64,000 nucleotides of DNA from assembly GCA_026023565.1 (NCBI GenBank), contig JAPETS010000035.1, positions 124,001-188,000 of the forward strand, read 5' to 3'. The notes under the pieces are model-generated. The model was not told the origin of the DNA and did not search any database. It saw only the letters and a list, made by a program, of their open reading frames with translations. Shown in pieces: positions 8,139-44,969 of the stretch (positions within the stretch are counted from its first letter, which is position 1; each line of letters starts with the position of its first letter). Origin of the DNA: Cirrosporium novae-zelandiae (taxonomy: Eukaryota). The position numbers and the translations under genes are program-made.

Positions 8139-9360
8139 GAACCCTAGATATAAGCCCACAACCCCTCGCGTCAAACTATGAGACCTATCTTCACACCAAA
8201 GAAACATGTACATAGTCTTCGTCATTTTCAACAAGAACATTAAATCATTAAATAACAGTGGATAAACATTTCGATCATCCTTCCAATGAAATAACCTGCA
8301 ACAAGTTCCAAGCTACTCTTTCGCGATATGACTCTATAATAAAACACTCCTCAAGGGGAATTGAAGAAGGGAGTGAGGATCCATTGGCATTCAATCCCCT
8401 TAGCCTACATTACTTTCGTTACAATGTATCGCCTACATGGGTTCGTGGGCAAGCCACATTGCACAAAGAAGAGCAGCTGCATAGGAATTGTTGAACTGCT
8501 GTTCCAAGTTTGGTCTCTCGCATAACACAAACTATACTTGAAGGACGATGGAAAGATAAAAACAATTGACTCATATATTCATCGACCAGACTATGGAGAT
8601 ACTAACATCGGAAAAGGGGCCACTATTGACAAAAGGAGAACCTCATACACTTAAAGTCTAGACAAATACCGATGGTATTTGCGAAAAAAGAGGAAGCGGA
8701 AGGATTGGGTTTGGTCGAAGAAGACACCAAACTCTTAAATGGATATCCCCTCTACCAATCTTCAGGCCTTCCACCTACAAGCCGAATGAGTTACTCGAAA
8801 AACAACCGGTGGGAATTAAAAATCCTGTGGCCGCTGAAGCTGGGGTGAGACTGGAGAACACAATCTTATCTGACTAAGATCAGTCTTACAGCAGGATCAC
8901 TACCAAAGTATCCTTCCCCAGAGATCTTAGACTTTCGGCAGATTACGGGATATCTTATCACGTACCCCTTTTTAAATATGTGGAAGGATCAAATTTTTGG
9001 CCACTTTGACTAGGGTTACTTGTTCCCGATAGGAAGTTAAATTTCTCCGCAGGCTGAGATCCAACTTTTAACGACTCGGATCTGTGCTCCGGTTTGAGAT
9101 AGCTTATACTAGTGGATATTCACACGTCCTCGGAGATGGTAGAGTCTTTACAAATACACGGCAGCAAATGTTGACATATCATACCAACAGGCTCGTCAAT
9201 GGGCGAGGCTAGATGTTAATGGACTCTGCCCTCTCCCCGGCCAGACGGCGTTTTCTACATATATAAGGGCCAGCAATGATTTAGACTCATGAGATGTGGT
9301 CTCTATATCTTGCACCAGAGCTTTCTCCAGATATTACAAGTATCCGACTATATATTCAAT

Positions 9361-10193
9361 ATGCCAACCTCTAAAACCTACGGTACCCCTTCAGCCGCCA
9401 ACGATGCTATTGGTGGCGTTCCCACCATTCACTACTTCGACTTCCAATCGCGTGGTCGAGGTCAAGTAGTCAGACTTCTCTGGGAAGATGCAGGAATTGC
9501 ATACAACGATGTGCGCTATTCATTTGACGAATATCCAGCGCATAAGCAAACTACCATTGCAGAGATGAACCCCGCAGAAACCATTCCCGTGATTAAGTTG
9601 AACGGGAAGACATTGACGCAGAGCTATGCGATCCTCAGACATTTCGCGCGACAGCTGGGGAAGTATGATGGCCAAACTAAGGAAGAACGGTATTGGGTCG
9701 ATGCCATGTGCGATTTGGCGAGTGATTGTATGTAGAACCAGACTAGACCAGACCAGACCAGACCAGACCCATCCATCCCTATCCTTACGCCCAACATCAT
9801 TTTCTAGAAATATCCCCAGCACCACCGAGAAGAAGCATAACACATCTAACAAAAAAACCAGGGCGCACCCTCTTCATCCTCGCCTTCTTCTCCCCCCAAA
9901 AAGCCCAAACCTATCCCGAACACATCCGCACCGACCGCGCCCGCTTCCTCAAAGCCCTCGAAACCCACCTTTCCTCATCGGAACTCTCACAACGGGGTCC
10001 CTATGTTATTGGGCAGGAAATCACCTATGCGGATCTGGTTATTTATCAGGTGTGCCATGATGAGCAGTTGACGCAGGAGGGGAGAAGGGGGCTTGTGGAG
10101 GGGGGGTATTTGAGGTTGAAAGAGTTGGTGGATGCGGTGGAGAGGAGGGAGGGGGTTAGGGGGTTTTTGGAGAGTGAGAGGTATTTGGGGTGA
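9361..10193 (+). CDS. Glutathione S-transferase
   Basis: N-domain HYFDFQSRGRGQVVRLLWEDAG...TIPVIKLNGKTLTQSYAILRH. Intron 9728-9861. Exon 2 has GQEITYADLVIYQ and ends at TGA 10191-10193. Confidence 0.9.
9738..9769. repeat. (CCAGA)n pentanucleotide microsatellite in the GST intron
   Basis: About 6 copies of CCAGA/CTAGA. Confidence 0.8.
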
Positions 10194-10280: not shown

Positions 10281-10644
10281 TCATATCCAATTCATTCTTT
10301 CCAGATTCATCCACATCTGGTCTTCAGCCGCATCAGACTACAAAAAATAAAAAGTTAACAAATTTCCTTCCCTTTTCTTATAACTATAATATACACGTAG
10401 GAATAAGAGATAGAGACACACAACACAACATAACATACCTTGATCGCAATCCTCCCCAGAACCCCTCTTGTCCCATCGACTTCTTGATTCATCACCCTCG
10501 CAAGGCCATTAATCCTTGTAACCTTCCCTTCGATCGTGTCTAGATTGTTGGAGATCTCATTTTCCATTGCCTCGTCTTCGCTGTCGGGTTCGAATTGATA
10601 TTTCATTCTTTGGTGGGGTACTACCCGTGAGTGTGAATTAGGAG

Positions 10645-10683
<39 letters not shown>

Positions 10684-11860
10684 GGGAGGAATTATTAGGT
10701 TTTTGGTCGAGTTGAGGTTTTGTAAAGGGGGTGCGTTGGAGTGGATATGATGGTTGGTGTTGTTTGGTGATAATAATGAGGGCTTCTTCTTCTTCTTCTT
10801 CTTCCTCGCATTGTCGTCGCTGTCGTTGGCGTCGCGATCCGGCTGTGAAGGGGTTGTCTATGTGTACAGCGGCAAACATGGATGTGTTTAATCGTTTAAG
10901 CTGTGGGAGACTTGTGTTAGAAAAGTATTTTTGTTTAGTCCAAAGGAGATGTAACATGTATTGTACCTCCAAAGCCTTCTCCGCTACAAGTTTATTTTGT
11001 GTCTTAAGAGAAGAAGAAGAGAGTATTAGCGATAGAAGAAAACGTTCGCTCACGGGGTTGGGTTATTCAATTCCATTTGGACTTACTAATGCAAGGTCAA
11101 GCTGTTTCTCAGTGTTGTGCTTTACATTTTTTTAAGCGGTGGTTAGTAATTATTATTATTGTTATTGTTATTACTCTCTCTCTCTGATTAGTGGGAATAA
11201 AATAAAAATCCATTTTTTGCATACCAGTCTTTTATTTTGGGGTTCAAGTTTTGAGAGTGTATCGTGTGCCATGATCTCGACTTCGGTGGCAAAACGAAGA
11301 GTATTGCGAGTTGAGGTGATGTCTTGCTGCTTTATGTATTGTATCTCTTGTTTTGTTGCTTGGATGTCTTGTTCTTCTTTTTCTAATTCCGCAGTAGTCA
11401 TTGTTCGACGATTATCATAGCTATAGAGGTCAGGGGGTGGTCGTTCATATCCTCTTCTAGATTTTTGTCCTAGATAGACAGAGAGAGAGAGAGAGAGGGG
11501 TTAGCAAAAATTGGCCCATTTTGTAAAAGCAATTCCAAAAGGAAAGGGGAGGGACTAAGAAGAAGAAGAGCAACCGAAAACTGTATCATTCTTATTATGA
11601 CTTTTTGGAAGCAATTTGTTATTGTTCCGCACTTTAGGTGGTCCACCATATCCCTCCCCAAAAACAATTCCATAGCGATTTATCTGTGGTGGTGGTGGTG
11701 GCGCAGAATTTCTTACGGGCGGCCCATGACGTTTGGACATGCCAGTCCCATATGCTGAAGGGTTCTTCACCGAGGATCCATGTTGTTTATTATTATTATG
11801 TATCTGGCTATCACTATTTCTGGTCTTGGGAATAATAGGAGCTCGAATGGTATCATCCAT
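10281..11860 (-). CDS. SEC9: Diverged Sec9/SNAP-25-like Qbc SNARE, six exons, ~372 aa
   Basis: Exons 11575-11860, 11225-11469, 11087-11119, 10967-11002, 10439-10900 and 10281-10337 splice in frame (first donor weak). Product has EQDIQATKQEIQYIKQQDITSTRNTLR...PQNKRL|HNTEKQLDLAL|TQNKLVAEKALE|LKRLNTSMFAAVHIDNPFT and KYQFEPDSEDEAMENEISNNLD...|SDAAEDQMWMN, which are recognisable Sec9 blocks. Confidence 0.8.
10647..10684. repeat. (CAA)n microsatellite encoding poly-Gln in the Sec9-like linker
   Basis: Run of TTG on the + strand; Q12 in the translation. Confidence 0.9.
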
Positions 11861-14345
11861 TTTTGATTGATAGATAGAAAAATATATTTGCGATAATAAT
11901 AATCTGTCGATCTTAGATATTTGCCAACAGTATAATTTCAAGGCCACTTACAAAAACTAGAGAAGCTTGTAAGACGCCCCTTGCTTAAGATCTTAACTGT
12001 CAGGTGAGAGTAGAGTAGAAGGAATGTGAAAATATAAGAAGCCAACCCTTTGGGTATAATAATATTGAAAATATTGCACACACATTTGCCATCCAACCTT
12101 GTATATCCATTCATGGGGAAAGAAAAATCCCTTTCTTTCTTTCCTTCTTTCTTTCTTTACCATTTTCAAAATATATACAAGGATCTAGAACAGACAGACA
12201 TCTCATCGTCACGATTTTTTGCCCACATGCTCTATAAAGGAGAATAAAGGAAGATGGGATTTTGCTGACAAAGAAGAGGTTAATAAGCATAAAAAAAAAA
12301 ACAGAGATCAAAGGATTCCCAAAAAGGAGGCATGGGATCAATTTCAGAACAAGGTTTTAGTACATGGTAACATGTATTGTACATTTGTTAGAAGATGTTT
12401 GCTGGGTGGCTGGAAGTTGGAAGTTGGGGACGGTATGGACTATGCCGCCACAGCCCGCCTAGCGATAAAGGGGCTCGGGGGCCAAAGTCACCAACTCCGA
12501 AACAGCCGTTACAAACAGCTTGATCAGCTTTTTGTATGCTGTTTGACTTCTTTCTTTAATCATCATTGATTAATAGTTACACATCAATCTCGTTGATGTT
12601 GATGTCTCTTGCTTCTTGTAAGCTGTATAATCTATTGTCTGATATCTGTGCTATTCCATCGCTTGCTTGTTTTACTGTCTCCAGGAATCTTTCAACTGCC
12701 TGCTTCTATGCATCAAGCCTGTAATCATGCAATGCATTTCTGCCTTGGACAATTGATGATTCACTTCCATTCGCAGCTTTACACGTATGTCATCTGGACA
12801 ATGAATGGTGCATGTGTGAGTGAGTGAATGGGGAAGCGAGCCTAGATGACTGCATTAGACATTGGAAAATATCATATAAGCAGCTGTTTTTCCCCATTTA
12901 ATTGTTTTCCCTTCTTCTTCTCTCCAGAGTTTGGGTTTTTAGCAATCTCTCATCCCTGTTCATCTGAGCTTATGTCTATACACTTATCTTCAAATTGAGA
13001 TATATATTTTATTCTTTTTCTCAGTCTCATGCGTCCTTATCACGGTCTACAAAATATCACGCGCTCCTCCTACTGGTCCCATCTTCAAGCTTTCATCTAG
13101 GACACCCAGGCTTTCAGAGTCATCTTATGGACTAATCCTAAGTCCATTACCAGTTGACATAGCTACCCCTACTTTTCATACTTGACTGTTTGTCAATAAT
13201 GCTATCACCCTGAACAATGTCTATCAAACCGTCATCGTACCTCATGTCGCCCATACGTTAATTACATTGGGAACGGGGCACAGGCTTACCATTCACTTCT
13301 AAGGAACTTACCTTATTGACCCCGTCAGGTGGAGCATGCGCAGAGGCGTACTTGACGAACTCCCGCTCTAATTCTTCTACAACGAAGCTTGTTGCAGTGA
13401 ATTTTGATCACTTACAAGGGTAAAAATATTATCGTTATCTACTCTACCTCTACCACCGCTACATGCTATAGTTGTTCTGCATCTGTACCAAAGATAAGAA
13501 ATCCTATGGCCTATACAACCTCCATCTGAAAATGGCTACTTCAATAGGATGGAGTGGTTTATATTACCATGAGCAAGTAAACAGACTACATAAGATCCCT
13601 TGAAGCTATAGATGTTGAAATCATTAATCCTGAATAATGTTTTATGCCATCTTTGTTAACCCTAGAATATCTGCTATTTCATCGTGGAATCCATTTTGTT
13701 TTTTTGCGGGCATTGAGTGCTATTTTCTTTTTACAGTCTTTTGTTATTGGGACACCGTATGATAGCCCTGCTCGCCTGAGAGCTGTATCTTCTCTTCTCG
13801 CTCTATGTTTGAGATGGACTTTCTTGGCCTATTGTCTAACCAATTTCTATCCCTGCCTATCTCGGTCCAGCATTTTCTTCCGTAGCTTTCAAATCACAAA
13901 AACCGAGTAGAAACTTTTTTTAATTCAAAACCTCAACCACCCTTCCAAACCAAAAAAGAAAAATCAATAGTACCGACGAGTGCTACCACTGCACCATCCA
14001 CCCCATCCGCCCCCTCTCAACAATATTGAAAATCATTAATCTACTGTAACAAGCAAGTGTCAGAACCAAAGAAATACCAACACACAGAGACGGATGAATG
14101 AAACACCGAAGAATCTCTTTCTCTTCTTTCTCACTGCTATAGACTATATAATAAAATTCTGCCATCCTTTTTTGAGCAGCAGCTGACTTCGTGTGCATTG
14201 ATTATCCGCATTGTGTCCCTCTCTCTCTCTTTAAGATGAACTGATTTACACAGATCCCCTCAAGAACGAAGAAATAATTAAGTTAATCAATTCGCTGGTG
14301 TAGTGACCCTCTCTCTACTTCCCCTGGAATGAACGCTATGTCTGT

Positions 14346-14452
14346 CCACCATATCATTTACCTTCCCTATATATATATTTAACATCCCTCCTCCCACTCC
14401 CTAATATTTTACTCTTTAGATTCCAAGTCCTAAAATTTCTTATACTAAATTT
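14346..14452 (+). repeat. Diverged direct repeat A, copy 1 (TATA-containing)
   Basis: CCACCATAT..TTACCTTCCCTATATATATATTTAACATCCCTCCTCCCAC..ATTTTACTCT..CTTATACTAAAT aligns by eye with 15639-15764. Confidence 0.6.
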
Positions 14453-14689
14453 TTATCCTCGCAAACTGTACTCTGCGACTGCGAAGGTAGTTGGTTGTGA
14501 TTCACCATCCTTTCAACTCAACTACCCCGAGCACGGGGAAAACCGATGACTGTAAATACTTACACTCCATTTTTTGAATTTATATATTAACTGACATTGT
14601 CTTAAACTTTACCGGTTATTTAAGATGATAGGGGCTGAGCTGAACGCAACCTTGCCAGTAGAAAAATGACCAATATACTTAGATGACAC

Positions 14690-15100
14690 CACGTATCATA
14701 TTTGCGAAAATAATGAAGTGGACTTCATTGTTTGGAAAGTATCGGTATCATATACTCACCCTGGTACCAACAACTGGTAAAATTAACCCAAAAGATTGGG
14801 ATTTCCTGCGAAATGAAGAGCACAACAATGTTTTGTAGAGCCTGAGCTCTGTCTCTGAGGATGAATCTATGGAAGCCTTTTGTGGAAAGAATTTTTAATC
14901 ACTCAACGGCACCATCGATCGAAAACTCCCCTTGAAACCGATATGTACTGTACACGTTGTACCAAGTTACCGGTATATTCGAGTAATGTTGGACATTTTT
15001 CATCGAGAACGTCGAGTGGTTCCATAAAGGACCCGTTTAAAAGGGGAGCATGTGGAAATTGCGCGAATCCGGGGAAAGCACATTGATGCACCCCATGGTT
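14690..15100 (+). pseudogene. Decayed Cys-rich (DUF3716-like zinc-binding) gene
   Basis: YCTRCTK...VGHFSS...FKRGACGNCANPGKAH*C resembles the CxxC...GPF...GACANC...C pattern; several in-frame stops upstream. Confidence 0.4.
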
Positions 15101-15638
15101 GGGGCTGCATCCATTTCAATACCACGCTCGGCGTTGACATGGTCAGGTGTCGATTTGACACCGTACTAATATATATAATCATCAGAGTGTTTGATCATAT
15201 ACTAACACTTGGGCAGATATGGACCAAGATTCTGGAAGACAACTTCCAGTTTATCGACAAGCTCCGTAATGTATTCAACATCACAAAGATGGCAAAGGAG
15301 AAATGAATGAAAGAGCCAATATTATTTGAAAAGGCCCATTAGACCCGAGTATAACCCTTCAATCGAGGACAACATATTATCCTGCAATATCGAAATAAGA
15401 GAAATGAAATAGTCTCGTGTTTATTATTGGATTTATTTTTACCGCATCGCTTCTCTGTTCAACTCAAAAACAAACTCTTTGAAGAGTTGACACCAGAGAT
15501 GTCGAGCAAGAATAGACAAACGAGCTCAAGCATGCCCCAACTGGGTATTCGGCTATCTCGCGGGAGATCAGTCCACGATCTTTCGAAAAGCAATAGCTTT
15601 CAATTAACAACAAGACCAGTCCTCACAATTTGAAATCG

Positions 15639-15764
15639 CCCACCATATGTTTAATAACATTACCTTCTCTATATATATCTAACACCCCTCCCACCCCTCA
15701 ACATTTTATTCTCTAGTTTCTAAAACCCATATTTTCAATTTTAAAAAGACTTTATACTGAAATG
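15639..15764 (+). repeat. Diverged direct repeat A, copy 2
   Basis: CCACCATAT..TTACCTTCTCTATATATATCTAACACCCCTCCCAC..ATTTTATTCTCT..CTTTATACTGAAAT. Confidence 0.6.
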
Positions 15765-16332
15765 CCTCACAGCAATCCAAAAACTTTGGGCGCCGGTGAT
15801 GTGGATACACTCACGAAGAACTCTTGAAAATTGAACCTGATTATGTGCTGTGCTTGCCGATGCAATCGCATCGAGGCCTGCCTTATACACCTAGTTCTTC
15901 TTCAAGCCCGATCTCTGCTGGCCTCCTCACTTTCGCTAGTTTAGAAATTAGCTTATCTCTATCCATCAAAGAGTAGACGATGGATTCTAGAAACCCCAAC
16001 AAACAGTGATCTAAAACAATTAGGAAACGTTTTAACTTTACACTTCGAAAAACACAACCAGAATAGCACGGGAATTAATCGAATCGAGGAGACGAATTTT
16101 GACCAGAAAAAAGCGAAAGAAGTAGTGAGTATAACAAGGTGCTTATTTTAGCAACGACGTGACGCAGATCTCCATCTTGCACCACCGGCGACCTCTCAGC
16201 AAGCCTCACTAGACACTCCTATCATCACATTTCTTCCGACGACGATAGTATTGTGAGGGAAATAGTATATTAATAGAGATGATGAGTTTACTACAGGTGA
16301 GACTCAGGCCAAAATTTCAATGACTCTCCGCT

Positions 16333-16386
16333 CAGGGAAGGGAATGGACCAGACCAAATAGACGGTCTGATCCATTCCCTACCCTG
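16333..16386. mobile_element. Ultra-short (54 bp) hAT-type MITE
   Basis: 23-bp TIRs CAGGGAAGGGAATGGACCAGACC / GGTCTGATCCATTCCCTACCCTG (2 mismatches), 8-bp spacer, flanked by 8-bp TSD TCTCCGCT / TCTCCGTT. Confidence 0.8.
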
Positions 16387-17348
16387 TCTCCGTTAGCGAG
16401 AACATTGTGACCTGCCAGGGTTACCACATATCTGTTCCCAATACTGAAAAGATGACCCTGAACAGCGCACTTTGAAGTAGCTAGCTACTGCCTCAGGCGG
16501 TGAAACTGGATTTGGGTTTTATATGATGTTATCCTGCCGAGATGTTTGAACAGGTATACCGGCCGACGACCTTGAAGTTCGAATCCCTCGCTAAGAATGG
16601 GTTCAAGACACTGCCAAAGACAAGCCTGAAAAATATAAAGGCAGACCCTAGTCACCTCTCTGAAGGGTTTGTTCACAGCGATGAAGAGGATGAAGCTAAT
16701 TAGTGATGAAGAGAGAGCCCGCAAAGCGTATTTATCCCGGAGCCAGCCCTGTGCCCTCCTTCCTTCGCAAGAATTCTACCAACTTAGTGGTGCTTTGGGG
16801 TTTTAGTAAGACACACCATGTGATATTCTTTAAACCTCTTATCTATTAATCGCCTTTTGTATATATTTATCCACTGAAGCCCATTTCTTCGAGATGAAAG
16901 GGACAGGAAAAGGAGAAAAGTACTCATAAATGTCATAAAACATAAAACGAGGATATTAGAATATCCTGTATCATCATCCCTTTATTTTATTTTCTTCTTA
17001 TTATTTAACTTTATTTTTTATCATAAAAACGGATGTATGTATTCGCTATCATTGAGAAAAACTTTCTGCTTCTCATATCTTAACACTATACGTTTATCAA
17101 TTCCATAACAAACAAACAAACCTTAGTCGTGTGTGTATGTGTCTCCCCCTGTCCAGAGAGGCTCGCGAGTGATAACGCCGCCACCCTTTTCAGAGCCTAT
17201 TCTTCCGTCGTTGCACGACGACTTGTAAGTAAGTACAATACTCGTAAAAAAATGTGTTGCAGTTGCGATTAACAAATTTTTTTGTTCTTTTAAGTTTTCC
17301 TTTATATTTATCCCCTCTTCTTACGAACATTAACATCACCTTCTATTC

Positions 17349-17385
17349 AAAACGAACTTTATATATCTACCAACCAGTTCAATTT
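17349..17385 (+). repeat. Diverged direct repeat B, copy 1 (copy 2 at 18223-18258)
   Basis: AAAACGAACTTTATATATCTACCAACCAGTTCAA versus AAAATGAACTTCTATATATCTACTAACCAGTTCAA. Confidence 0.6.
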
Positions 17386-17744
17386 CACTTTCCTTGTCGA
17401 AAGACTAATATATGGACTTTAGATTCATGTTATGAGGTTATTTATCTATTAGGGGGGTTATGGAAATAACTAGCTAGATTTAATGAATTGTTTTTTTATA
17501 TTTTTCTGCTGAGTATACCAATTCATTTTCTAATCCTGAACAGCTGTGATGGTTACTTAATTCTACATCTACTTTCGACTTGACATAGCCTGCCCTACCA
17601 TAGCAACAGCATACATCTATCCCTATTTCCCACTACACTTGAACCTTACTTCCTACGTATGGTTCGGGCATTCCACCATTAAGCTACCGTGATGAATATC
17701 GAACACGGTTTACTGAGAATGCCTGGAAAAAACGCTCTTATGAA

Positions 17745-17916
17745 CAATGAAGGGAATAGACCAGACCAGACCGGTCTGACATGGTCAAAATAACCTCATG
17801 TTGGGATAGCACGGATCAGCAGTAAGGACGTTCACGACTGTTGCTGTAGTAATAATCAAGTTACCGCAGCAATAATCACCTTTAGACCGGTCTGGTGTGG
17901 TCTATTCCCTTCACTA
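17745..17916. mobile_element. hAT-type MITE, 172 bp
   Basis: ~33-bp TIRs (CAATGAAGGGAATAGACCAGACCAGACCGGTCT / AGACCGGTCTGGTGTGGTCTATTCCCTTCACTA) and a perfect 8-bp TSD CTTATGAA at 17737-17744 and 17917-17924. Confidence 0.9.
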
Positions 17917-18639
17917 CTTATGAATATAGTAGGTCCATATTTTGGATAGAAATCTTTAACCGGGATCATGGGATGTTTCCAAACAAACACAACAAGGTCG
18001 AGATTATTTTACACGACTAGCGTTCTACTACCTACAGAAACTACAGCTAACTAAACCTAGCGGATTTTTCAACGGGCTAAACTAAACGTCACGACGAAGG
18101 AAGGGCTCATGACAGCCACCCACTCAAAGACTCCCATTATACACGCGCATCTTTACTTGAACACATGAATGCTAGTTAGCTAACTCGTTTATTCAAGACT
18201 TTATTATATCTTCCTTTTTTTTAAAAATGAACTTCTATATATCTACTAACCAGTTCAACAATTCTACCCCCTTTTTCTTCCAAATATCAATAAAAATGAA
18301 CTTTCCTAATTACCGGGATTAAAACCTTGTGCTATACAGCTATAAGGCTCTTATCCTCCTCTTCCTCTAACCTCCTAATTTACGACAAGCAGCACCAATA
18401 CATACCCGTTTGAGTAAGTTAAGTTTATTTGACAGTATTTTTTGGGCTTTTTTAGATAGTTTTTTTTTATAAAAGTTAGTTGACTATTAATCAATATGCT
18501 GCACACATAATTATTATTCCATTGGCCCTATTACTACTCCTATAACACACGTAGAATATCGTGAAACCTTTAGGGGTTAGGGGTTGGGGAGGGGAGAGGA
18601 TCTAACGCCTTAGTCAATAATTTCTTTTCCGGCAAAACA

Positions 18640-19012
18640 AATCCGTTATGAAGCTGAGGTTGCCTTTGGTCCACAGAATGTGGTAGCTGATGGTTTATCG
18701 AGAACCATTCTTAGAGGTGACACTTGTGAACCAGACTTTTGGGTGGAGGAATTGCAACGCAAGCTAGATGAAGAGGGCCCTGAATGGGTCTGGAAGGATG
18801 GAAAGGGTGGCTACCTAGACCTACTGAAAAGATTAACAGAGAATGAAGTTAGTGAAGTACTAGAACCGGGTACACTCGAAAGCAAGTCTGTATTTTCGGT
18901 GGGGACGATCGAATCGTGGGTTGAAGCCTATGAACACTCATATTCGTTCGGAGACGAATGGAGGTTTCTGAGAACAGGCCTGGTACTACATCTACCTTGT
19001 TATTTTGTGTAA
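18640..19012 (+). mobile_element. Ty3/gypsy LTR-retrotransposon pol relic (RNase H end and linker)
   Basis: GPQNVVADGLSRT matches the GxxNxxADALSR motif that closes gypsy RNase H. Isolated fragment with no RT or integrase. Confidence 0.65.
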
Positions 19013-20105
19013 GGATGGGTTCTGGACTCGTCCCACCTCGTCCAGCGGGACGGGGTTAACATCAACCCGGCACATTTTATTCCTGGCGTGTCGCAGCCTT
19101 CTTACATAGAAGGTCTATTTATTCAATGTAAGTTGCGAATCCTGCGAATCTAGTACCTGAACCAAACAATATCGAAATGACAGCCTTATTGTGCTGTATC
19201 AAGTGACGCCCTGGGGTCGTACATGTTATTTTGTGTTTCGTGGGGGGCCGAGGCCCATGGGGGATGCGGTTCCCGGCGCTTCCTGGCCTTGCAGCTGCGG
19301 CTGCGATCCTTACACAAAATAACATATATAAAACCAGCTTTTCTATTAGAATAATTCATCATCTTTACAACCACTCGTTTTTCATGTCAAAATCTTTCAA
19401 CTTAGCCCCTTGGTCTAGAAAAATGTACTGGCATTCCAATATCCTTTAAAATAATTTTTTTTCTTTTTGATTTGATAATTTCCCCCTATATAAAAGCTAT
19501 ATGTTTATTGTCATCTTCAGCTTTATCATCTAGCACCCCCTTGGCGTGTACGGTTCATACTGACGTCGTAGTCTCCCTTCTCTCGTCGTTTTCCTCAGCT
19601 TTATCTTCCAGCGCTCCTATCGAATGTGCGGTTCCATGTTCACCATCTCTCCTCTTATTGTTTTGTCGTACCGAACTCGCGTCTTATTCCATTACGCATC
19701 TTTTCAACCCGATCATCTGTTAGGGTTATAAACCGGTCACGTGTCACCCACTATTTAGCCAGCGATCCCACATATAGAATCCACAAGTTTGTCGCATCTA
19801 TCTGCTCCAATATCATCATGGCTACCTCCGTTGCAAAGGGGAAAGGGCGCATGGACGTTTCCACCCCGAGTCAAAGTTCCCAAGAGACAGAGCCTAGTAT
19901 TTAGTAGCATACCCTTCACACTCTTAGGTTGATTGAAGTTTTCCTTGCCTTGCTAGACAGCCGTGTCGAAAGACCAGTTTGATCTCTCATCAAAATCATC
20001 TAGCTAATACCACACTATTAACTATCCCCTTTGTTATGGATTAGTTTTGTTTGCTTTGTTTGTTTGAGGATAGACCACCACCAACCCCCACCTTTTTCCC
20101 TTATT

Positions 20106-20290
20106 ATGCTTCCCTCTCGCTCTGCTATTAACGTCCCCGCCGCTTCCACTGCTAGTCGTGGTGTCGTTTCTACCTGACCCAAGTGTCTAAAATATTTTTG
20201 GCGCTTCGCTGCTAATCCCTCCCTCGTCTACACCTAGTAGCCAGGCCCCTCTAGGGAGTATTTAAAGAACTGCTTTCTATCTGCGAGATT
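20106..20290 (+). pseudogene. Decayed small Cys-containing ORF with RIP-like stops
   Basis: MLPSRSAINVPAASTASRGVVST*PKCLKYFWRFAANPSLVYT**PGPSREYLKNC; the stops and Tyr codons are one transition away from CGA/CAG/TGT. Confidence 0.3.
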
Positions 20291-23200
20291 GGAGTTTTTC
20301 TTCTGAAAGGTTCGTCGCTTCCAGGCTCATGAATATAGACTTCATTTTTCCATCAAAATCAACACCAGCAGACGTAGCATCGACAACAATCCAATTTACA
20401 ACCGTCGAGGAGCTGTTTAAGCTGATTAATTATGTCACCGAAGATATCTGAAGACATGAGAACAAAAGAGTAAATCTACTATTTTGATAATAACATGGCT
20501 CACCAATTTCCTCAAACGGTTAACTGTGGATAACTTTCTTACAAATACCGTATTATAACTTTATCCTTGAAATTGTCGCCTGGCAAGCATGTACACCTTT
20601 AAGGCCCCGTCGCGGGCTGCTGCGACGTAGGAAACCATAAATTACACAGTCTCTCCTTCGTTCACCAATTTTTGGATAAAACAGTCTACGGAAATCAATA
20701 TTTTCACAATCATAAATGATATCTGGGATGCTAGCGGCTTTGGAAGATGGAGACAAGGCTGGTACACGGAGGAGAAAAAGACGAAGAAAAAGATCAAAGG
20801 ATGGGCAAGGGCCAGGCAAGGGCCAAAGGCTACGATGAAAGGAAAGCCAAAAGGGCAAACCGAATGGAAGAACGATAAAAAATCAGATTAACATTAAATA
20901 ACGAGTTATTTTGTGTAAAGTACATTGGTACAGAAAAATCAACTAGACTTCTTTATATCTAAATTACCATTTTTGCTCCTACTACAGTATAATATCCTCG
21001 CTCGCGCCGACCCCCCCTGCCTCGTCTGTCGCCCGCACTAGCCAACTTCCTGTTGGCTGTACCGATTTCACTACTCTTTTAGATGATTCTACCCCAGATG
21101 CCTCCACCTAAAGTTAATGGATCAAATTCGTTGGCTTGAATTGATTCCCGCTGCCGACGTAACTAATGTACCCCTTTCCTTGTTTGTTTTGTTCTGTTCT
21201 AATTAACCTTTTATAGCATTTGGCTCACTCTCCCCTCCTCGCGTGGCGCCTAGGGTGTCCGATGGTCCCGGCGTTTGTCTCTGTTCTTGAGTAGATAGTT
21301 CATGCTGTATCCGCTGCTGTGGAGGAGGAGCCCTATTTGTTCGTGGTAAGTTGATGCTTTTGATGCGTTTTGCATTCTGATGCCGGGTTTCTTCTGAGGA
21401 TGGATTGGAACCCTTTCGATTGGCCTGGAGTTGCCCAAGAGGATATCACTCGCACCAACGAGCTTCTCACCCACTCAAGTGAAGATGATAATGATGTTCG
21501 TATACTTGATGATGTAGTTGCGGGAGCGGCTAGCTTATGTGCAAAACAGGGGATTCTCGGCGCTGGCCAAAATATTAAAAAATTACAACTCCATCAACAA
21601 CAACTTTCCTTGGGAAAACTCTCAGCGTGTTAAATCAAACGCAGAACTCAACGAAATTCCAATAGCAGAAGAAAATATTTTGGCTTTGGTCGTTTCACAT
21701 TTTCAAAGCCCCATCCGATATTCTACTTAACAGGTGATTAGATATACGTTGTTTTTTTCATTTTTAATTGTCCGTTTTATTTAGAGAGAGGTTATATTAT
21801 CCCAGTAGCTTGATACCATAAGCTATATTTTTTCTAGTCTGTTCAAATTAAGAGGATATAAATACTCTTTGAACATTCCTATCTTCTTTATTCTATAGGA
21901 CCAATCTAATTTACCTGCATATAATTGTGATGTAGTTATTATGAAGGGGATATTCATTTTCATTTACCTGACTAAGACAAGATCTGGGACCTGCACGAAA
22001 AGGAAGAGTAGTTATCGATATACGCGGTTTGAACAAAATCTCTGAGCCAGATGTGTATCCTTCACCACTACAAGCAGACATCATTTCAACAACCAGAGAT
22101 TATCCTTTGATTACAATTATAGATGGTCTCTCCCTTTTTTTTTTTTTTCAATGGAACATGCATGCACCCTTCGAGCCGCCCGCTTGGTATGTGTAATTTC
22201 ACATCATCGTAGCCAACGAAATTTTTAATGTTGTGGTACCAAGGTCACAGAAATTCTGTTTTTTCTACGTGCAAAGAGAGAGAGATAGATTTAATACTTC
22301 GAGAGTTTAGAACATTCGTTCGAGCATACATTGGTGATATATATGGTGGTTGGTTCTAAATCTTTTCGCTTGCACTTAGATTAATTACTTGAGAGCAGTG
22401 CTCGCAGGTGACTCAATCTATCCTCACCAAGTCCTGGAAGCGGATTAGGTGGTTCGCATGATGAAATCTCCTTTACAGTCATACCTCCTCCGCACCAATA
22501 TGGGCTTAGGGAAGACGCTCACCCTACTAACCACTATGCTAGCAATTATCCGACGCCAGGATCATTCCACGCAGCGTCTTTGACAGTTTGGAACCACGAT
22601 ATCACCAGGGGGGGGGGACCAGTGCCAGGCAGAACTTACAATAACTCTATCTCCCTTCAGGATATAGCTCTCTCGTTTTATGTTTCTTAGTAATGCAAGA
22701 CCAAGTACATAGGAACTTGAAGAACTTGGAGGATTGCAACATCCCCCCTTTTCATTTGAAAATTACTTTTATTTGCTTAAGCTGCATGTCGAATACCCGA
22801 AAACTGGATATTTTGGTTGCTTGCCACACATTCCACTTTAATTTCATCTTTCGTTCTTAGCTGGGAATTCCTAACTAAAATTCTGAATTTTTTTTTATAG
22901 GTTATATATAGTGTTATAGCAGACAAGGGAAAGGTTAGTGAAATGATGGTTAGAGTTGAACCTACCTATAGAAAGGGGCTAGCATAAAGACAGAAAATTT
23001 TACAAAACAATCCCACCTAGCCTTGTTAAGTGACATTTATACAACCGCGGATTCTCTCTCCAATCTTTCTCATCTTTTCTCTTCGGTCGTCAACCACTCT
23101 GAATTACAGTCTACAAGAGACAAACAAGCTTTATACTGTATATTATAATCCGTTACCTTTTCAAGGGCATATTCTATTCTCAAAGAAAGGAAAGAAGACT

Positions 23201-26200
23201 TAAAGTGATTATTAATGAGATTGTAGAAAGTAGAGATTAGCAACCATGCACAGGAGAACGAAAAAGGGATAGAAATTACCAGGGTAGTAGGAATCAATAA
23301 TAAGAAAGGCGATGAATGATGGTATGAAACTTGATAAAAGAAGAATACCAATAGAGTAATCGCTTGCCCAGGTAAGGTGGTAGCAGTAGAGCTAAATGAA
23401 CGGGGGGGATAAATGCTGTCTAAAAGCTGATAAAATAAACACCTATCCACATATACTATGTTTTCGTTTTCCATCTTTCTTCTACATTAAAGAACTTAAG
23501 TCACCTCAAGAAATAACCAGACCCCGAGGGCCTCGTTTGGTACCGCAAACTACGTTTTTTAAATGATATTCGTTTGCTTTCAAACGCTGCACGACACCAT
23601 CCACCCCCACACATTCCCATCTTTGGGGAAATCCAAGGCAGCACCGTACGTGTCCTCTTCTACCCTCTTCCTCTCTCGGGAGTGTTCCGTATCGAAATTT
23701 ACCAATGGATGCACAATGTGGAAATTGGAACTAGACTCTTAACAGGAGGTTTCATTCCACGAGTGAAAGAAAAAAAGAAAAGATTTATGAAAATTTTTTT
23801 AGGGTATTGTAAGGACTGCAGTTTGTTGCAGCTTTAGGGTGTGTATGGGCTAATTAATTATTATGTGTAGGAAGGAGAACTGGATCGAGTTAGCAACTGC
23901 GAAAATAATTAGAGATCTTCGATAGTAAAAGGCTAAAGGGGTAGGTAGGTGATAAAAAATAATGAGAATCGACTAGTATGCGCCCTGGGAGCTCCCAATG
24001 TTTCTTTTTATGAGAAGATACTCGTGGCTCCTTTGAGTCACCAATGAGATTCTTTTTTCTATGCACTTCTGCTTCCCCTTGATTACCATGTTCGCCAATT
24101 TATCTTTTGTGCAATCCATATAGGCACGTCGAAAGGGTTTTCGTTGATAGGATTCTGGGGCAAGATATAGCAAATGGAGTATGCAGGTAGGTGTATGGTA
24201 TATGGTATACAGAATAGATTGCTATTGAAGAGTTCTTCTTGTGAGGATCTAGACTACGAATATTGGTATGGAATTGCAGCCCATTGGGGTTCCCCCATGC
24301 AGGGTATATTTGTATTTCTCACAGCCTTTTAGATGATTTAATACTTGAACTAAGTCACAATCATTAGTCACACTTGCAACTCCCCTGTGAAAGACCATGT
24401 CAAATATATTCAGTACACAGGCGTGATAGGTTTTTGGGTAGGCAATTAAAGCCTAACCCATCAAGCACAGACCGTCTCTTTATTTAGCCCAGTCGATCCC
24501 TACCGCTAGGGACCCGTCGATCACAAGTGCCAGGAAGACTTTCCCTGTGCTCGCAATCCCCCAATGCATCTAGGTTGTCTGTGTAGGGCTGGAACCTGTT
24601 AACTTCCTTGCTATGTCGGTTGACATCTCAAATACCATCTGCACTGTTTCATGGAAGAGTAGGCGGGAGAGTGAGTGTGCAAGGCTCTATGGTGCACTGT
24701 GGCTGAACCCCAGCCAATAATATTGAGTCACAGTGGCCTGTCTGCCTTATGCATGCATTCGACCGTCCCGCAGCCTTAGCCCCATCAGGCTGAAAGTGTT
24801 ACAGGGCCTTTCTTTCCCCAGATGTGGGGCGCGCTCGACCATCTCTTAGCCCGGAGAAGTACTAAGATATTGAACTTGCTCATAAGCTGTCCTATCTAAA
24901 CCATCTGCGACCATATCGAAATTTACATTTCCATTCTATCCTCTCAAGCCCATAGCGCACCATCCTCTTGCCACATCATCCCGCGCTATCGGCTATCGAG
25001 GTGTCATACCTTACTTTCGTGGTCCAATTCCATACGTACGGTAGCTAATTAACTACTATCAAGCAAGCAAGTTCGCTAAATGAAACTGAGGCGTCTTCGC
25101 GGAGGAGCTGATGTCCTGAACTGTCCCCGCATGGCTGGTAGGGTTGTCATATAAGGATTATGATAGATAGGTTAGATCACTATTTCCAGGCAGAATCAGG
25201 CATCAACTACTTTGCTGAATCATATTGAGCCTCAAGATCTTATCATTGGGCCAATTGACTTTTACCACCCTTGCTAGCGGTAGCTACCCGGGGACAGTTC
25301 AGGAAATATTCGAATGCTTCTGTCTCTGCTTCTGCTTTTGCCCGTTACGATTTCAAAGCCCGAATGAACGACAGACCAACAGGACCCTAAACAATCAGCC
25401 ATCAGCGAGGCTATAGAGCTGATACAAAAGCCCCACTGTAGCCCGTTGCCACTCAAGCAACACCTCGAGCCAATGAATACGATTATCGAAAGGTGAATTT
25501 AGCTAGCCAGCCAGCATGGGATAGTTGGTTTGTTAGCTGTCCATCCCATCCATTCCATTCCATCCACGACCAAAGCGATGCGATAGGCGAATAGATATAA
25601 AAAGGGTGTGTGTGCACGGACGCAGGGCCTGATCACATGATTATATGTGCCCTAGTTACTCCACAAATCCAGCGGGTACCCAAGTATGGAGAATTAGGGT
25701 CTCTGAAACTGATCGACAATGAAAGACTGCAGCAGTGATCAGCCTAGTAGCTTCACTTTGCTTTGCTCTGTTATGCTCACTCATCTATCTGTATTTTCCA
25801 CAACAACCCTACTTTCGGCCGCCGAGGCATATTCCGCAAGCCCTGCTCTCAACTTTCAATTTTATCCTCAACCACAACTTTTCGACCTCGATTGGCAAGT
25901 TCCACGGATGTCTTATACTAGTTTTATTAAGTAAGGCAAGGTAAGCAATTTGTGTAAGTTGATTAGGTAGATCTAAGATAGCATAAAAGAGCCTCTTTAA
26001 CTTTCCTACGTGTTGTATTTTGGTTTGGGGGGGGGGACGGGGTAATGTTTTCATTTTTATTATATCTATTCATTTATTCTATCTCATTGCAGGTATAAGT
26101 AAGAAAGAAAGAAAGAAAGACTATAACGAGGGGAAGGGGAAGGGGAAGGGGGGGGTGAGGACGCGTTGGACGTTTGATGAATGGGGCATTGTTCGAATTT

Positions 26201-27498
26201 GAGTGAGGATTGATTTCTTCTTCTAATAGGGGTAGGCTGTAGGTAGGTAGGTATGTCAATGTCAATGACAGGGCGGGCGGGTGGCTCGTGGCTGGCTGTA
26301 ATAGTAGTAGTAGTAGTGTATGATGTACATATACTAGCGGTAGTATACTGAAATACCAAGTAAACATAAGCTGCTAGTCAATAAACCCGTTTTTAACAAT
26401 ATCCATATAGTAAGTATTGCGCGTTGTATTGTGTTGGATTGGATTCGATTGTAGCAGAGATCTGGTTTAATTTTGGTTTTGGTTCTTGAAAAAAGAGGGA
26501 AAGAAAGAAAGCCTCTCCCCCCCTCCTGCTAAAACTCTTTTTTTTTTTTCTTTTTTTCTTCCTCCTTCTCTTTTTTTCTTTTCTTTACTCTTTCTACTCT
26601 CTATATCAAATATCAAATAATTCCAATTTATAACTTAACTGTATCACTCACTCACTGATTAATTATATAAGAATCCTTAACCCCCCCCACTCCCCTATTC
26701 CTATTACTCTCTCTAACCCCCTAATCCTCCTCACTTAAGATAATTTGAATTCTCATATCTTCTATGCCAACTCCTCTCACCCATCCCTCTTCCTATCCTA
26801 ACTACTATACCACACTTTCACCTCACAGAAAAACAAGGGAAAACAAAACAAATAAATCCAAAAGATCCATCTCTCCCTCAACCCCTTCCCTACCCTATAC
26901 CAACCATAAATGACCCATATCCTATCCTATCGACCCATTCATATAACGATCCCTTTCTTCCTTTTTTCTGCTTTCCCTTATTTATTTATTTTTTTTCTAG
27001 CTTCTGGCTTCTGGATTTTGATTCGTAAGTATGGAATCAATCAATAAATAAAGGAAGGAAGAAAGTATAGGCGTTTGGGGTGGTTGGTTTTGGTTATTAA
27101 GTTGAGGATGGGGCTAGGGAAAGGGAAAAGGGGTTTGATGGGACTGGGATTGGGTTATGGGATTTGTATGGATGAAGGAAGGAGTAAGGGGGAAGGGGAG
27201 AAAGGGGTGTGGGGATGGATATGTGAGATGTGGGATAGGGAAATAACTAACATCATCTAACAAGGTGTTTTTTTTTTTTCACAATTTCTGTTCTTCTTCA
27301 GCCTACCCACCCCATCCATATTGACATGGACCTTTAATGATTTATGACATGTATGTGTGACGTTGCAATTATTTTTGAATGATGGTCTAAAAGGCAGGGA
27401 AATATAGATATTCCCCGCCTAAGGGTCCGTGCCCACGAGCTAACCCCAATAAGGTGGGTCATACAGGTAAAGGGCAAAAACGCTGCACAACCACATAT

Positions 27499-28944
27499 CT
27501 ACATCTTATCCCCCGCCAACCCAACCTCCGAATTCCTCTGCCCCGCCAAAACCCCCTCCAAAAACTTCCTCAACGCGTTCTCGCTCAACCCACCGCCAAG
27601 CACATGGCCCAGCGCATGACCCTCAATTTCCGCACTAGCAATAAACCCGAGTTTCATTGCGTCGACGATTAGTTCTAGGGTGTCGTGTTGTTTTAGAGCT
27701 AGTTTAGTGTGTCCTGTTTATGGTGTAAATGGGGAGGAGAGAGAAGGGGGATAAAGGGGGGGGATCTTAAACTTACTTTTTAGAAATGGGTCTTGATGTT
27801 TACGGATTTTGATTTCGTATTTTGTGACCGAGGAGGCGGGATAGGTTGTTTTTAGATCGATTGGGTGGCCTACGCTGCGGACGATGTAGTTGTCGCGTTC
27901 TTTTTTGTAGTGGAAGTAGTGGGGTTCTAGCAATGGGTTAGTTGGGTAGGTGGCTTTGGTTATTTACTCGTGATGATGAACTGGGTGGTCCCACCTTTTT
28001 CTCCCTTCTTCGGCTCGATTGATTCATCTTTCAGATCGAAAAGCGTGGACCCTGTGAGTGTATGACTGAGAGCCCAGGGCTCCGCGCCTTCTTTTTTGGC
28101 AACATTCGTTTTCTTCACGTTGACTTCCGGTAGGCCGATGGCTTTCGGTGTTGTATGGGCACGGTTCAATATCTCTTTCATAGTATTTTCATCCTCTATC
28201 CCCAACTAATTAGTCACCATGGCCCGAAATAGAATTGGGGGTGGATGGATGGATGGGTAAAAAATACTATAGACGATGATGCCCTTCGTAAAGCTAGAAG
28301 TGCCGATGTAGGAGATGAGGAAGAATACGTCGATGAAACCGATGAGTCTAATTTTGCCAGGCCATCGTTCACCGTTTATTTGAATCTCCCAGGGATGGAT
28401 GTCGCTTTTTAGCATACCGTCAGCGCCTTTTGCTACGATGAGATATATGGATATTGAAACTAGGCAGAGGATGTGAGGGAGGAAGGGGAGAGTTATGCAC
28501 GCACCAATCGCATTGAAGGCTGTTGTCGTCGATCGATCTTCCGAATAGGTGGAGAATTCGGTGGTAAGAAGCCATGCTAATTGCTCTCGAAAGCTTTTGT
28601 TTTGTTTTTTTTTTTCACAAGAAAGAGTGATGTGCTAGAATCGAGTTTCCCTATAAAGTCGGATTCAACGAGAAGTGGTGGGATGCACTCACCGTGCAAG
28701 TAAGAGCTACGGCAACTCTAGTTTTGATATCTGGTTAAGCCTCAGGATCTGCAGGACTAGACGTGAGCAAGACGCTTGCATGCACTTGCATATGCGCTTC
28801 CGATATATTTGTCTCGTCTTCCCCGACATGCATTAGGACATCAGTAGTTGATACGAGCGCTGGTAGGGATTCTGAAGTGGCAAAGAGCCAACGAGATAGG
28901 GAGAAAATGTGATTCCAGCAACTGCAGAAGATAAATCCAAGCAT
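27499..28944 (-). CDS. Orphan hypothetical protein, eight exons, ~270-306 aa
   Basis: Exons 28786-28944 (or 28833), 28693-28706, 28505-28593, 28418-28432, 28268-28347, 27968-28205, 27777-27926 and 27499-27674 join in frame through GT-AG introns: MHVGEDETNISEAHMQLLLARFREQLAWLLTTEFSTYSEDRS...EPWALSHTLTGSTLFDLKD...GGTTQFIITKPHYFHY...LRKFLEGVLAGQRNSEVGLAGDKM*. No family recognised. Confidence 0.7.
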
Positions 28945-29321
28945 GGACCACTCGCCCTCCCCTAATCTTCTACTTTGTTGATTAGACACAGCGACGTGGG
29001 GTTCTATCATGCACGCTAGTAGCTGCACTTACAAGCATGCAGATCAGCTCGTTTCTCTCAGCCTTCGCTTTTATCCAGCTCCGCGGAGAGGTTAGAGCCG
29101 CAAATGTCAATATCTATAAATAATTTCCCATATTTGGACGAATTCTTGTCTTGTAAACCGTGATAACTCTCTAATAGTGTCCTTAGAACCCGATACAGCT
29201 TTCGTCTATTGGAACCTCTCTAAGTTGTCTTACTGTCTCTTATCTAGCCTTGGTCTGGTATCATAAACAACCATATCAACACCTCGCTAGGAGCTTTACC
29301 TGCACCAGGAATAGCAACAAG

Positions 29322-32300: not shown

Positions 32301-33508
32301 TCCTCGGAAACATTACAGGCACACTTGAACCCTCAAATGATTTAGAGGACTTTAAAAAATGGTCAGAGAAGATCAAACCCATTCCACCGTGCAATCTTGC
32401 CGGACCTGGCATTCCGGAGCGCAATAAGAATTCTCAGGATGAGTCTTTAAATAAAAAAGACCTACCAGATGCGTCTAAGAATAGCACCATGATCTCACCG
32501 AACCCCATCATCGTAGATACCTCTGGCATTGGGGGGGTATTTGATATTCAAAGAATTATAGTGACGATGCAGAACCCCGATAAACTTCGCAAAGAGATCG
32601 GCAAACTGACAAGTGTAAATCACAAAATTGGTGGGGAATGCACAATCAGCACGGGATTTGCTTCAGTCGCAGTGGCTTTCTGTTGCGAAAAGCATGTGCT
32701 GCAAAAGCAGCTCGACGCGTGCGATGTCATTGAGAATACAATCTTAGAGCGGGGAGTAGGTAGCAGAACTTCTGCATCGCCTACAGACGCCAACATGAAA
32801 GTCGTCACCGATCAGAATCCACAATCAAGCGAAAGAGCAACAGACACAAAGCCAGAAGAGAATGAATCCGGCATGAAAGCCAAAACACACGCCCAAAAAC
32901 GCATGCAGCGTATGCTCAAGTTCGTACAAGAATCCGACCTGAACCTCATAGCCGGTGAATGGGTCCTTGCACGTTTCTCCGGCGTGCGCGACGCAAAATG
33001 GTTCCTGTGCCGGCTGGAACTAGGTTCGACACACGAGTACTACGGGTGGCGGATTGCGACAGATGAATTCGATTTCTCAACGAGCGCGGTACCCGAAAAG
33101 GAACTCGTTGGCTGGTGGGAGACCTATATGAACCAGAAGAAAGTCGAACTATGCCGGATCGTGCGCCTGGCAATCCAAAGCCGCAAACTAAAAGCTGCCG
33201 AAACGAAAATATCGGAGAATCACAAGCCAGGGTCTCCAGAATCCCAGAACCAGGAGGAAGATGAGGAGGAAGAGATATCGACCTGGGCAGCGATCTGCAA
33301 GTACGGCTTCGACAATGTGACGCTGGTCGGTACTTGGCTGCTGCGTAACATCACAGATAAATATACCGTGCAGCTGAATCAAGCGCTTGACGAGACGGTC
33401 TTAAGGCCGGTCCCGAAGCATCTGAGAACTGCGATTATGAATTTGCATGAGGATAGAAATTGGCTTCCTGCTATGTTTATTCCAGCAGCAAAGGTGCATA
33501 TGCTGTAG
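29322..33508 (+). CDS. HET (heterokaryon incompatibility) domain protein, ~1370 aa, with a long coiled-coil insertion
   Basis: HET blocks YSILSHSWKGREI, YLWNDTCCINK, ESLALMGEWYTNAEFCLVHL and WATRGWTLQEL, followed by DQVYSLMGMLGV. Intron 30954-31027 joins the two long ORFs in frame. Confidence 0.9.
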
Positions 33509-44439: not shown

Positions 44440-44969
44440 ATAGTGTGTGTGTGTGTGGGAGAGGGGTTGGTAGATTTTTTTTGTTTATTTGTTTATTTGT
44501 TAGATACCTTTAGAGACTTTACGAAATGAAAGAAAGAAAGATGGGGGTTATAGGTTATGTCGTGTCTATAGTTTGCCTTTGGTGTTTAGAGAAATAGGGA
44601 AAGAGAAATAAATCGTAGTTATTGTATTGGGTTTTGGTATTTTATTGACTTGGCCTTTTTTCTTACTTGGAGAGAGAAGGCGAGAAGGATATTAGAAAGG
44701 GGATTTAAAAAACAGAAAACAGAGAGCTAAGAACGTCTTCTCGTGTGGTTTTTTATCATTTCATTTTCATTTTTTTTCATTATGGTTTTTTGTATACATA
44801 TATACAGAAAGGGTCTATCCAGAGCCCCTATACAAAGGACTTTCTTTTCCGAATCATATATAGCGACCCTAGGACTCTCTCCCTACTCCTCCTTCACTTA
44901 CTATATACAATCACCCCACCCTACCCACCACCCACAACCCCCCAACCAACCCCACACCCAGCCCATCCC

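Follow-up and report, generated by a model that had tools for sequence, protein, structure and literature searches.

At positions 11860 to 10281, on the minus strand of a 64,000-nt stretch of the Cirrosporium novae-zelandiae genome (NCBI GenBank assembly GCA_026023565.1, contig JAPETS010000035.1, positions 124,001 to 188,000 of the forward strand; hereafter the window), lies a six-exon gene for a strongly diverged SNARE of the Sec9 family, here called the SNARE gene and its product the SNARE protein. We favour, at a probability of about one-half, the reading that this gene is a second copy of SEC9 that has been relocated and retuned, because its terminal branch is about fivefold longer than usual, five of its core residues are unique within the family, the N-terminal motif and linker of the family have been lost, and its chromosomal neighbourhood is foreign to SEC9. 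A first-pass annotation, made from the letters of the window alone, had already placed the gene at these coordinates and had described it as a highly diverged Sec9 with a Thr in place of the central Gln of its second SNARE helix. Both its placement and its description stand, and the minus-strand gene extends from an ATG at 11860 to a TGA stop at 10283–10281.

Judged by its sequence, the gene encodes a Sec9/SNAP-25-type Qbc SNARE. Exon 5 alone matched 34 Sec9 proteins (E 9e-13 to 3e-8, identity 33–41%), 136 matches at E ≤ 1e-3 came out of 1.84 billion cluster representatives searched exhaustively with HMMER, and the spliced model aligned with Sec9 proteins over residues ~112–370, with a top phmmer score of 166 bits. 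The best matches among solved structures were both chains of yeast Sec9 (9cru_L, E 2.6e-8 with exon 5; 3b5n_C, E 0.013 with exon 2), and the spliced protein contains both Sec9 family motifs, SMFA(A)VHxxNPFT and KYQFExDSEDExMExEI. A Pfam scan of exons 1, 2 and 5 taken singly gave no family at E ≤ 0.01, while the Qc part alone (residues 93–154) returned as a query 16 candidates, none of them significant, such that this search was uninformative. Each of the two helices carries 16 heptad core layers in register, with a core-type residue at 32 of 32 positions. The layer residue is the commonest one of the family at 18 of these 32 positions (Qb 11/16, Qc 7/16), versus 32 of 74 non-layer positions. 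The central Gln of the Qb helix, which the first-pass annotation had reported in the context LEPQNKRL, is indeed retained as Q173; it is present in all 93 homologues of the layer comparison and aligns to the Qb Gln of yeast Sec9. It is preceded here by Glu-Pro, where the family has Gly-Ala. The SNARE region as a whole begins at about residue 117, versus ~190–260 in canonical Sec9 proteins.

Measured against the 93 homologues, the SNARE protein keeps 34 of the 41 columns that are conserved at ≥ 90% and 66 of the 94 that are conserved at ≥ 70%. The seven near-invariant columns that it has lost (A152T, A159V, G163A, G171E, A194V, L330I and Q344T) are concentrated in the core, with six of the seven being layer positions. 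Five layer residues are matched by none of the 93 homologues, namely Val at Qb −4, Ala at Qb −3 (Gly in 93 of 93), Val at Qb +6, Ile at Qc −4 and Thr at Qc 0. In kind, the core changes are conservative: small residues have become slightly larger ones, Leu has become Ile, and no charge has been put into the core. Because this conservative pattern is accompanied by an intact reading frame and intact splice signals, it is better read as ongoing selection for a bundle that still packs, though differently, than as neutral decay.

The Thr at the Qc zero layer (T344, ACA codon 10471–10469, in the context EVDGTRGVL) had been placed there by eye, and three alignments now agree on the placement. First, MAFFT with 11 Sec9 proteins set EVDGTRGVL opposite EVDEQNxHL. 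Second, in phmmer pairwise alignments the position was occupied by Gln in 131 of the 135 homologues that covered it, the four others having Asp (P0017), Pro (P0085, an intron read-through), His (P0103) and Ser (P0164). Third, KELDSQQKRL of the yeast Sec9 structures (9cru, 3b5n) aligned with QEVDGTRGVL such that the first Gln of SQQ stood opposite the Thr, and this Gln is the zero layer because hydrophobic layers flank it at three residues before and four after. The Gln that typifies the family is thus absent at this position of the SNARE protein. Metagenomic loci that span the Qc zero layer had Gln in 63 of 64 cases and His in one (L025), and the 93 homologues of the layer comparison had it in 91. 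Thr was seen in none of about 200 Sec9 homologues (135 proteins plus 64 metagenomic loci, two sets that may partly overlap in source).

Two sets of exceptions to Gln deserve a note in their own right. P0017 and P0295, both Joint Genome Institute (JGI) metagenome proteins, have Asp at the Qc zero layer and cluster with Chaetothyriales-like Sec9, and their models keep an in-frame intron. P0103, which has His as does L025, is an apparently chimeric model from Elaphomyces granulatus.

When 94 SNARE regions (243 kept columns) were placed in a maximum-likelihood tree, the end branch of the SNARE protein measured 1.28 changes per column versus a median of 0.24, i.e. about five times as long, which agrees with its earlier description as highly diverged. 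Its highest identity over the 243 columns was 44%, so ~56% of aligned positions have changed. It fell among loosely ordered rows that include named Lecanoromycetes and Eurotiomycetes, within no starred clade and with SH-like approximate likelihood-ratio (SH-aLRT) values of 81–83 at the forks, and it was joined there to another long branch (P0117), which leaves its exact position unsafe. The search of 1.84 billion cluster representatives yielded no closer relative (best match 69 bits, none at 1e-30 or better), and nothing exceeded 47–59% local identity in the collections searched; thus no orthologue of the Thr form is known, and those collections hold no allele of it either. The acceleration is, by comparison with a neighbouring gene of the window, specific to the SNARE gene, because the product of the cytochrome b2 gene shows an ordinary 66–72% identity to its counterparts in other classes. 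Introns aside, this cytochrome b2 ORF matches letter for letter a protein, P0170, that is labelled Cirrosporium novae-zelandiae at its source. Repeat-induced point mutation (RIP) was considered as a cause of the divergence and is ruled out by the dinucleotide indices of the gene (TpA/ApT 0.78; (CpA+TpG)/(ApC+GpT) 1.17), which lie beyond the usual RIP range. Two other proteins, P0087 (Lophiotrema nucula) and P0117, sit on longer branches still (1.67 and 1.64) and keep the Gln at the zero layer; these may be further fast-evolving Sec9 copies.

The six exons (Table 1), which had been predicted to keep an open frame, do so: joined, they make 1119 nt, or 372 codons plus TGA, with no internal stop. 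Introns 2–5 begin with GTATGC, GTAAGT, GTACAA and GTATGT and all end in AG, and each of the five introns has a branch site of the CTAAC/TTAAC type 20–35 nt ahead of its acceptor (TACTAAC and GCTAAT in introns 2 and 3). The two micro-exons together rebuild the family sequence HNTE..LDLA....AE.KA.E without a gap, a result that would be hard to get by chance. Only the start of the gene is less secure. The donor of intron 1 could be GTTGCT at 11574 or GTCATA at 11601, and none of the in-phase GT or GC sites is GTRNGT-like; because this donor is weak, exon 1 is provisional, and an alternative start is offered by an in-frame Met in exon 2 (MTTAELEKEE), just ahead of the Qb helix. As modelled, the exon 1 region lacks the N-terminal motif that is common to canonical Pezizomycotina Sec9 in the MAFFT alignment with 11 Sec9 proteins. 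The linker between the two family motifs of exon 5 is not conserved, and it does carry the two homopolymer runs that the first-pass annotation had pointed out, eight residues of poly-E (10807–10784) and 13 of poly-Q (10684–10646). Of three DNA runs, X1 alone, which may itself be the origin of the assembly, carries the locus, as two contigs split at these repeats.

Table 1. The SNARE gene and the landmarks on either side of it (positions are those of the window).
Feature	Coordinates	Strand	Remarks
Exon 1	11860-11575	-	Provisional; ATG context AAAATGG (good); 95-aa N-terminal region, Pro/Gly/Asn-rich
Intron 1	11574-11470	-	105 nt with GTTGCT as donor (weak); TGCTAAC branch site and TAG acceptor
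Exon 2	11469-11225	-	N-terminal part of the Qb helix to layer +1; zero-layer Gln codon 11239-11237
Exon 3	11119-11087	-	33-nt micro-exon, HNTEKQLDLAL; Qb layers +2 to +4
Exon 4	11002-10967	-	36-nt micro-exon, TQNKLVAEKALE; Qb layers +5 to +7
Exon 5	10900-10439	-	Qb end, motif SMFAAVHIDNPFTA, linker, motif KYQFEPDSEDEAMENEI, Qc to layer +2
Exon 6	10337-10281	-	Qc layers +3 to +8, then TGA stop
Glutathione S-transferase gene	9280..10193	+	Pfam GST_N and GST_C_3; convergent with the SNARE gene, stops 88 bp apart
ORF-poor stretch	12000..29000		17 kb on the promoter side of the SNARE gene; G+C ~0.40-0.42
HET-domain gene	29187-33508	+	Probably a single gene made up of two long ORFs in a row (603 and 854 aa); HET domain partial (E 2e-10)

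A protein containing exon 5 was not found in a collection of 15 billion proteins, though the product of the cytochrome b2 neighbour is present there, and the SNARE gene thus appears to be missing from public annotation, probably on account of its two micro-exons (33 and 36 nt). The same absence would fit a duplicate that is in decay or died recently, is not transcribed or not spliced, and has kept its frame open by luck, and the weak donor of intron 1, the homopolymer runs within the linker, a G+C content (0.41) below that of the neighbouring genes (0.46–0.50) and the adjoining 17-kb stretch poor in open reading frames (ORFs) all lean the same way. We nonetheless consider such a death distinctly unlikely. 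With more than half of the aligned positions changed, luck would have had to spare 372 codons in six exons from every stop and frameshift, as well as the branch sites of all five introns and the GT..AG ends of introns 2–5, while admitting only conservative changes to the core and leaving most near-invariant columns in place; nor are the dinucleotide indices RIP-like.

For comparison with canonical genes we scanned metagenome contigs and recovered 80 canonical SEC9 loci, 42 of them at least 8 kb long, several being the same species from different samples. The last intron of the SNARE gene (after RIxxK) lies at the same site in canonical Sec9 gene models, as seen in the read-through models P0003, P0017, P0001, P0004 and P0035. 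The stretch between the two zero layers, on the other hand, was covered by a single tblastn segment, i.e. held no intron, in 71 of the 80 canonical loci; introns were present in seven, and two loci were partly covered. Shared intron positions were tried as evidence of ancestry and rejected: in the two of these seven loci that were read in detail (L011 and L077), introns occur near introns 2–4 of the SNARE gene but at different sites, offset by 5–7 nt or by two codons. The extra introns are therefore peculiar to the SNARE gene or its lineage. Since it has introns between the zero layers, and only the last one is common to canonical genes, the SNARE gene is no retrocopy.

The chromosomal setting also differs from that of canonical SEC9. 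Among the 42 loci of at least 8 kb, a C2H2 zinc-finger gene lies 3–6 kb downstream in 17 and a Sec1-family gene lies upstream in 12, while an alanyl-tRNA synthetase gene and a gene for a GTPase with a GTP_EFTU domain are each found in seven. Loci with such shared neighbours have their best named matches in Lecanoromycetes, Eurotiales, Chaetothyriales and Dothideomycetes (for the C2H2-bearing loci, in Lecanoromycetes, Chaetothyriales and Eurotiales). None of these four neighbours occurs within the 64-kb window and, conversely, the flanks of the 80 loci contain no homologue of any of 17 translated window ORFs, which come from about ten neighbouring genes and include the glutathione S-transferase gene that converges on the SNARE gene. 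The SNARE gene would thus seem to lie outside the conserved SEC9 neighbourhood, and we regard the synteny evidence as moderate, not decisive. As an aside, the Sec1-family gene (for a Sec1/Munc18, or SM, protein) is the immediate upstream neighbour of SEC9, ~1.5–4 kb off and on the other strand, in those 12 loci (L017, L020, L021, L032, L047–L049, L052, L054, L062, L063 and L075; best matches Eurotiales and Chaetothyriales), and this adjacency may represent a conserved pair of SNARE and SM-protein genes.

Several observations weigh against a second copy. No canonical Sec9 of the same organism was present among 30 homologues looked up by name (those that carry a name being from Ptychographa, Lophium/Mytilinidion, Ascosphaera, Thermoascus, Gomphillus, Eremomyces, Lophiotrema, Coemansia and Elaphomyces), although a copy elsewhere in the genome would be invisible to these searches, and run X1 shows no contig at ≥ 80% likeness besides the SNARE locus itself. 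According to Kienle et al. (2009; PMC2639358), Sec9, like Snc, is usually present as one copy in Pezizomycotina, and the sole Sec9 is described there as ‘clearly diverged’ in some Sordariomycetes; therefore, a duplication would be rare from the outset, whereas sole copies that have diverged are already on record. As for synteny, 13 of the 42 longer loci show none of the four neighbours, some of them for lack of flank. The organism itself belongs to an isolated class or lineage within Leotiomyceta, as reported in PMC6712537. Finally, 17 of the 19 substitutions at the zero-layer Gln of Sso1 were tolerated by the yeast exocytic complex in vegetative growth: in the experiments reported by Yang et al. 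(2008; PMC2600744), all residues but Arg and Pro at Q224 supported growth, Lys doing so weakly. Because that complex tolerates most residues at a Gln zero layer, the Thr by itself proves no new function and is no argument against an ordinary exocytic role.

These observations lend themselves to an alternative that we consider less probable than not by some way, but a real contender, namely that the gene is the sole SEC9 of the organism, encoding the essential exocytic Qbc SNARE, which was relocated and has evolved unusually fast in an isolated lineage while performing ordinary exocytosis with a Thr. In its favour, one copy is the usual state in Pezizomycotina and diverged sole copies are reported from Magnaporthe, Neurospora, Podospora and Chaetomium (PMC2639358), the yeast exocytic complex accepts most residues at a Gln zero-layer position (PMC2600744), the near-invariant columns are largely kept and the core layers entirely so, and the protein falls in the tree, weakly, where the species would be expected. 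No second copy was seen in our searches either, though these could not reach a canonical copy elsewhere in the genome. What tells against a sole SEC9 is that the acceleration is confined to the SNARE gene, that the conserved SEC9 neighbours are all missing, that the N-terminal motif and linker of the family are gone, and that a core Gly present in 93 of 93 homologues and a Gln present in 91 of 93 have been replaced. The mutational path to the Thr bears on the question as well. No fewer than two steps lead from a CAA or CAG codon to ACA, and we infer that the shortest routes run via Lys or Pro; since these residues are poorly tolerated at the Sso1 position in the reported growth experiments (PMC2600744), such a route would be easier in a redundant copy. 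Complexes containing Spo20 are, in the same report, sensitive to zero-layer changes.

Beyond the glutathione S-transferase gene, on the same side, the window continues with a gene for an alpha/beta hydrolase and two for Zn2Cys6 regulators. The ORF-poor stretch on the other side is devoid of ORFs of ≥ 150 aa, of direct repeats of ≥ 40 nt and of Rfam families, and has one weak inverted pair. We considered a decayed NOD-like receptor (NLR) gene or transposon as its source and rejected both, as the 46 ORFs of ≥ 70 aa in it gave no protein family (the one sub-threshold Pfam match was Methyltransf_13, E 0.0087, with 16.6 bits versus a cut-off of 31.3) and neither a direct repeat nor an Rfam family was present. 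Its dinucleotide indices are mildly RIP-like at 16–24 kb and 26–28 kb. Next comes the large HET-domain gene, whose product has long charged stretches resembling coiled coils but neither a Walker A motif nor any other family, and past which lie ordinary metabolic genes. Elsewhere in the window, G+C rises locally to 0.51–0.58 at 44001–46300, with unusual dinucleotide indices of 1.06 and 0.92; overlapping long ORFs on the minus strand (44970–46226 and 45121–46170) have only a weak BNR-repeat match.

HET-domain genes are numerous in Pezizomycotina. The presence of one in the window nevertheless invites the idea, also put forward in the first-pass annotation with sec-9/plp-1 in mind, that the SNARE gene is an immune or allorecognition determinant, i.e. 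a polymorphic Sec9 or a decoy watched by an NLR. Four fungi are described in 10.1101/2022.04.03.486892 as having pairs of NLR and SNARE genes in which the SNAREs are highly polymorphic, and strong divergence of Sec9 is what we see here. In the systems described in that study, however, the NLR gene is adjacent. Our scan of 81 stop-to-stop ORFs, comprising all those of ≥ 150 aa in the window plus the 46 of ≥ 70 aa at 12.2–29.0 kb and thus covering 10 kb on one side of the gene and 52 kb on the other, gave no match to patatin, lipase, NB-ARC, NACHT or TPR/ANK/WD domains, and the HET protein is without a P-loop (Walker A) and 17 kb distant. With no such domain among the ORFs scanned, the guard reading finds no support in the genomic context, and we regard it as very unlikely.

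The data show that the gene belongs to the family, is intact, carries the Thr, has a long branch and lies at a non-syntenic position. We infer three further things in holding to a relocated and retuned second copy: a canonical copy elsewhere in the genome, expression of the SNARE gene, and its function. On that reading, a relocated copy would have been freed from the constraint on the essential exocytic SEC9 and then been retuned and held by selection. Its protein would be predicted to supply two helices to a four-helix bundle with the plasma-membrane syntaxin (Sso) and synaptobrevin (Snc). With its core repacked through the five family-unique layer residues, Thr for Gln among them, and with the N-terminal motif and family linker lost, it might form a complex of changed stability, disassembly or partner preference, and could, much as Spo20 does in yeast, serve as a SNARE with a specialized or regulatory task, perhaps a stage-specific one. 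A more specific proposal, which we think unlikely as it stands, is that a second Qbc SNARE of the lineage with a re-engineered core takes other partners or forms a weaker, non-fusogenic or slowly recycled complex, and so acts as a natural inhibitory or decoy Sec9; its role would then lie in stage-specific regulation of exocytosis, or in serving as bait for effectors or for an unlinked NLR.

Either way, the gene is of interest because the zero-layer Gln is the defining residue of Q-SNAREs and is almost never replaced in the Sec9 family. A natural and apparently selected Thr Sec9 with a repacked core would be a ready test case for what the ionic layer and layer packing contribute in vivo, be it to register, to stability or to disassembly by Sec18. 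Alongside a canonical copy, the gene would represent a rarely reported duplication of Sec9 in Pezizomycotina and a parallel to Spo20 that arose independently; as the sole copy, it would show the extent of drift that is possible for an essential exocytic SNARE.

Set beside known systems, the SNARE protein shares with Sec9 (the fungal SNAP-25 homologue, a Qbc.IV SNARE; yeast Sec9 in 3b5n and 9cru) its two SNARE helices on one chain, Qb then Qc, without a membrane anchor, along with the two family motifs, one following Qb and one preceding Qc, the Qb Gln, the heptad register and the position of the last intron. It differs from Sec9 in five core residues that none of 93 homologues has, the Thr of the Qc zero layer among them, the Glu-Pro that replaces Gly-Ala, an unrelated poly-E/poly-Q linker and the want of the conserved N-terminal motif, and the gene differs from canonical SEC9 in its four extra introns and its other chromosomal neighbours. 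With the NLR-guarded SEC-9 systems (Neurospora sec-9/plp-1, Podospora het-Z, Cryphonectria vic2) it has in common a diverged exocytic SNARE in a filamentous ascomycete; Botrytis Bcvic1/Bcvic2 belongs to the same group, with a syntaxin as its SNARE. The guarded SNAREs are reported to be essential and to lie beside an NLR gene (10.1101/2022.04.03.486892), whereas the ORFs scanned here contain no NLR domain.

A Qc zero layer other than Gln in an otherwise normal SNARE motif is also found in Bet1 (Ser), Sft1 (Asp) and Syn8 (His), as listed beside the Gln of Sec9 in Table 1 of a survey of Beauveria SNAREs (PMC11204939), but in these Golgi or endosome SNAREs it is the family-wide state, whereas in the Sec9 family Gln is near-universal. 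With Spo20 of Saccharomyces the SNARE protein shares the character of a fast-evolving, Sec9-derived Qbc SNARE with a shortened N-terminus and changed interface residues. Sec9 and Spo20 are reported to be ~37% identical, with markedly asymmetric rates and a reduced N-terminus in Spo20 (PMC2639358), and the specificity of Spo20 versus Sec9 is reportedly set by two interface residues (PMC2600744). Spo20 arose from the yeast whole-genome duplication and is not orthologous to the SNARE gene, yet the SNARE protein, at ~35–44% identity to canonical Sec9, shows the same asymmetric acceleration and the same reduction of its N-terminus.

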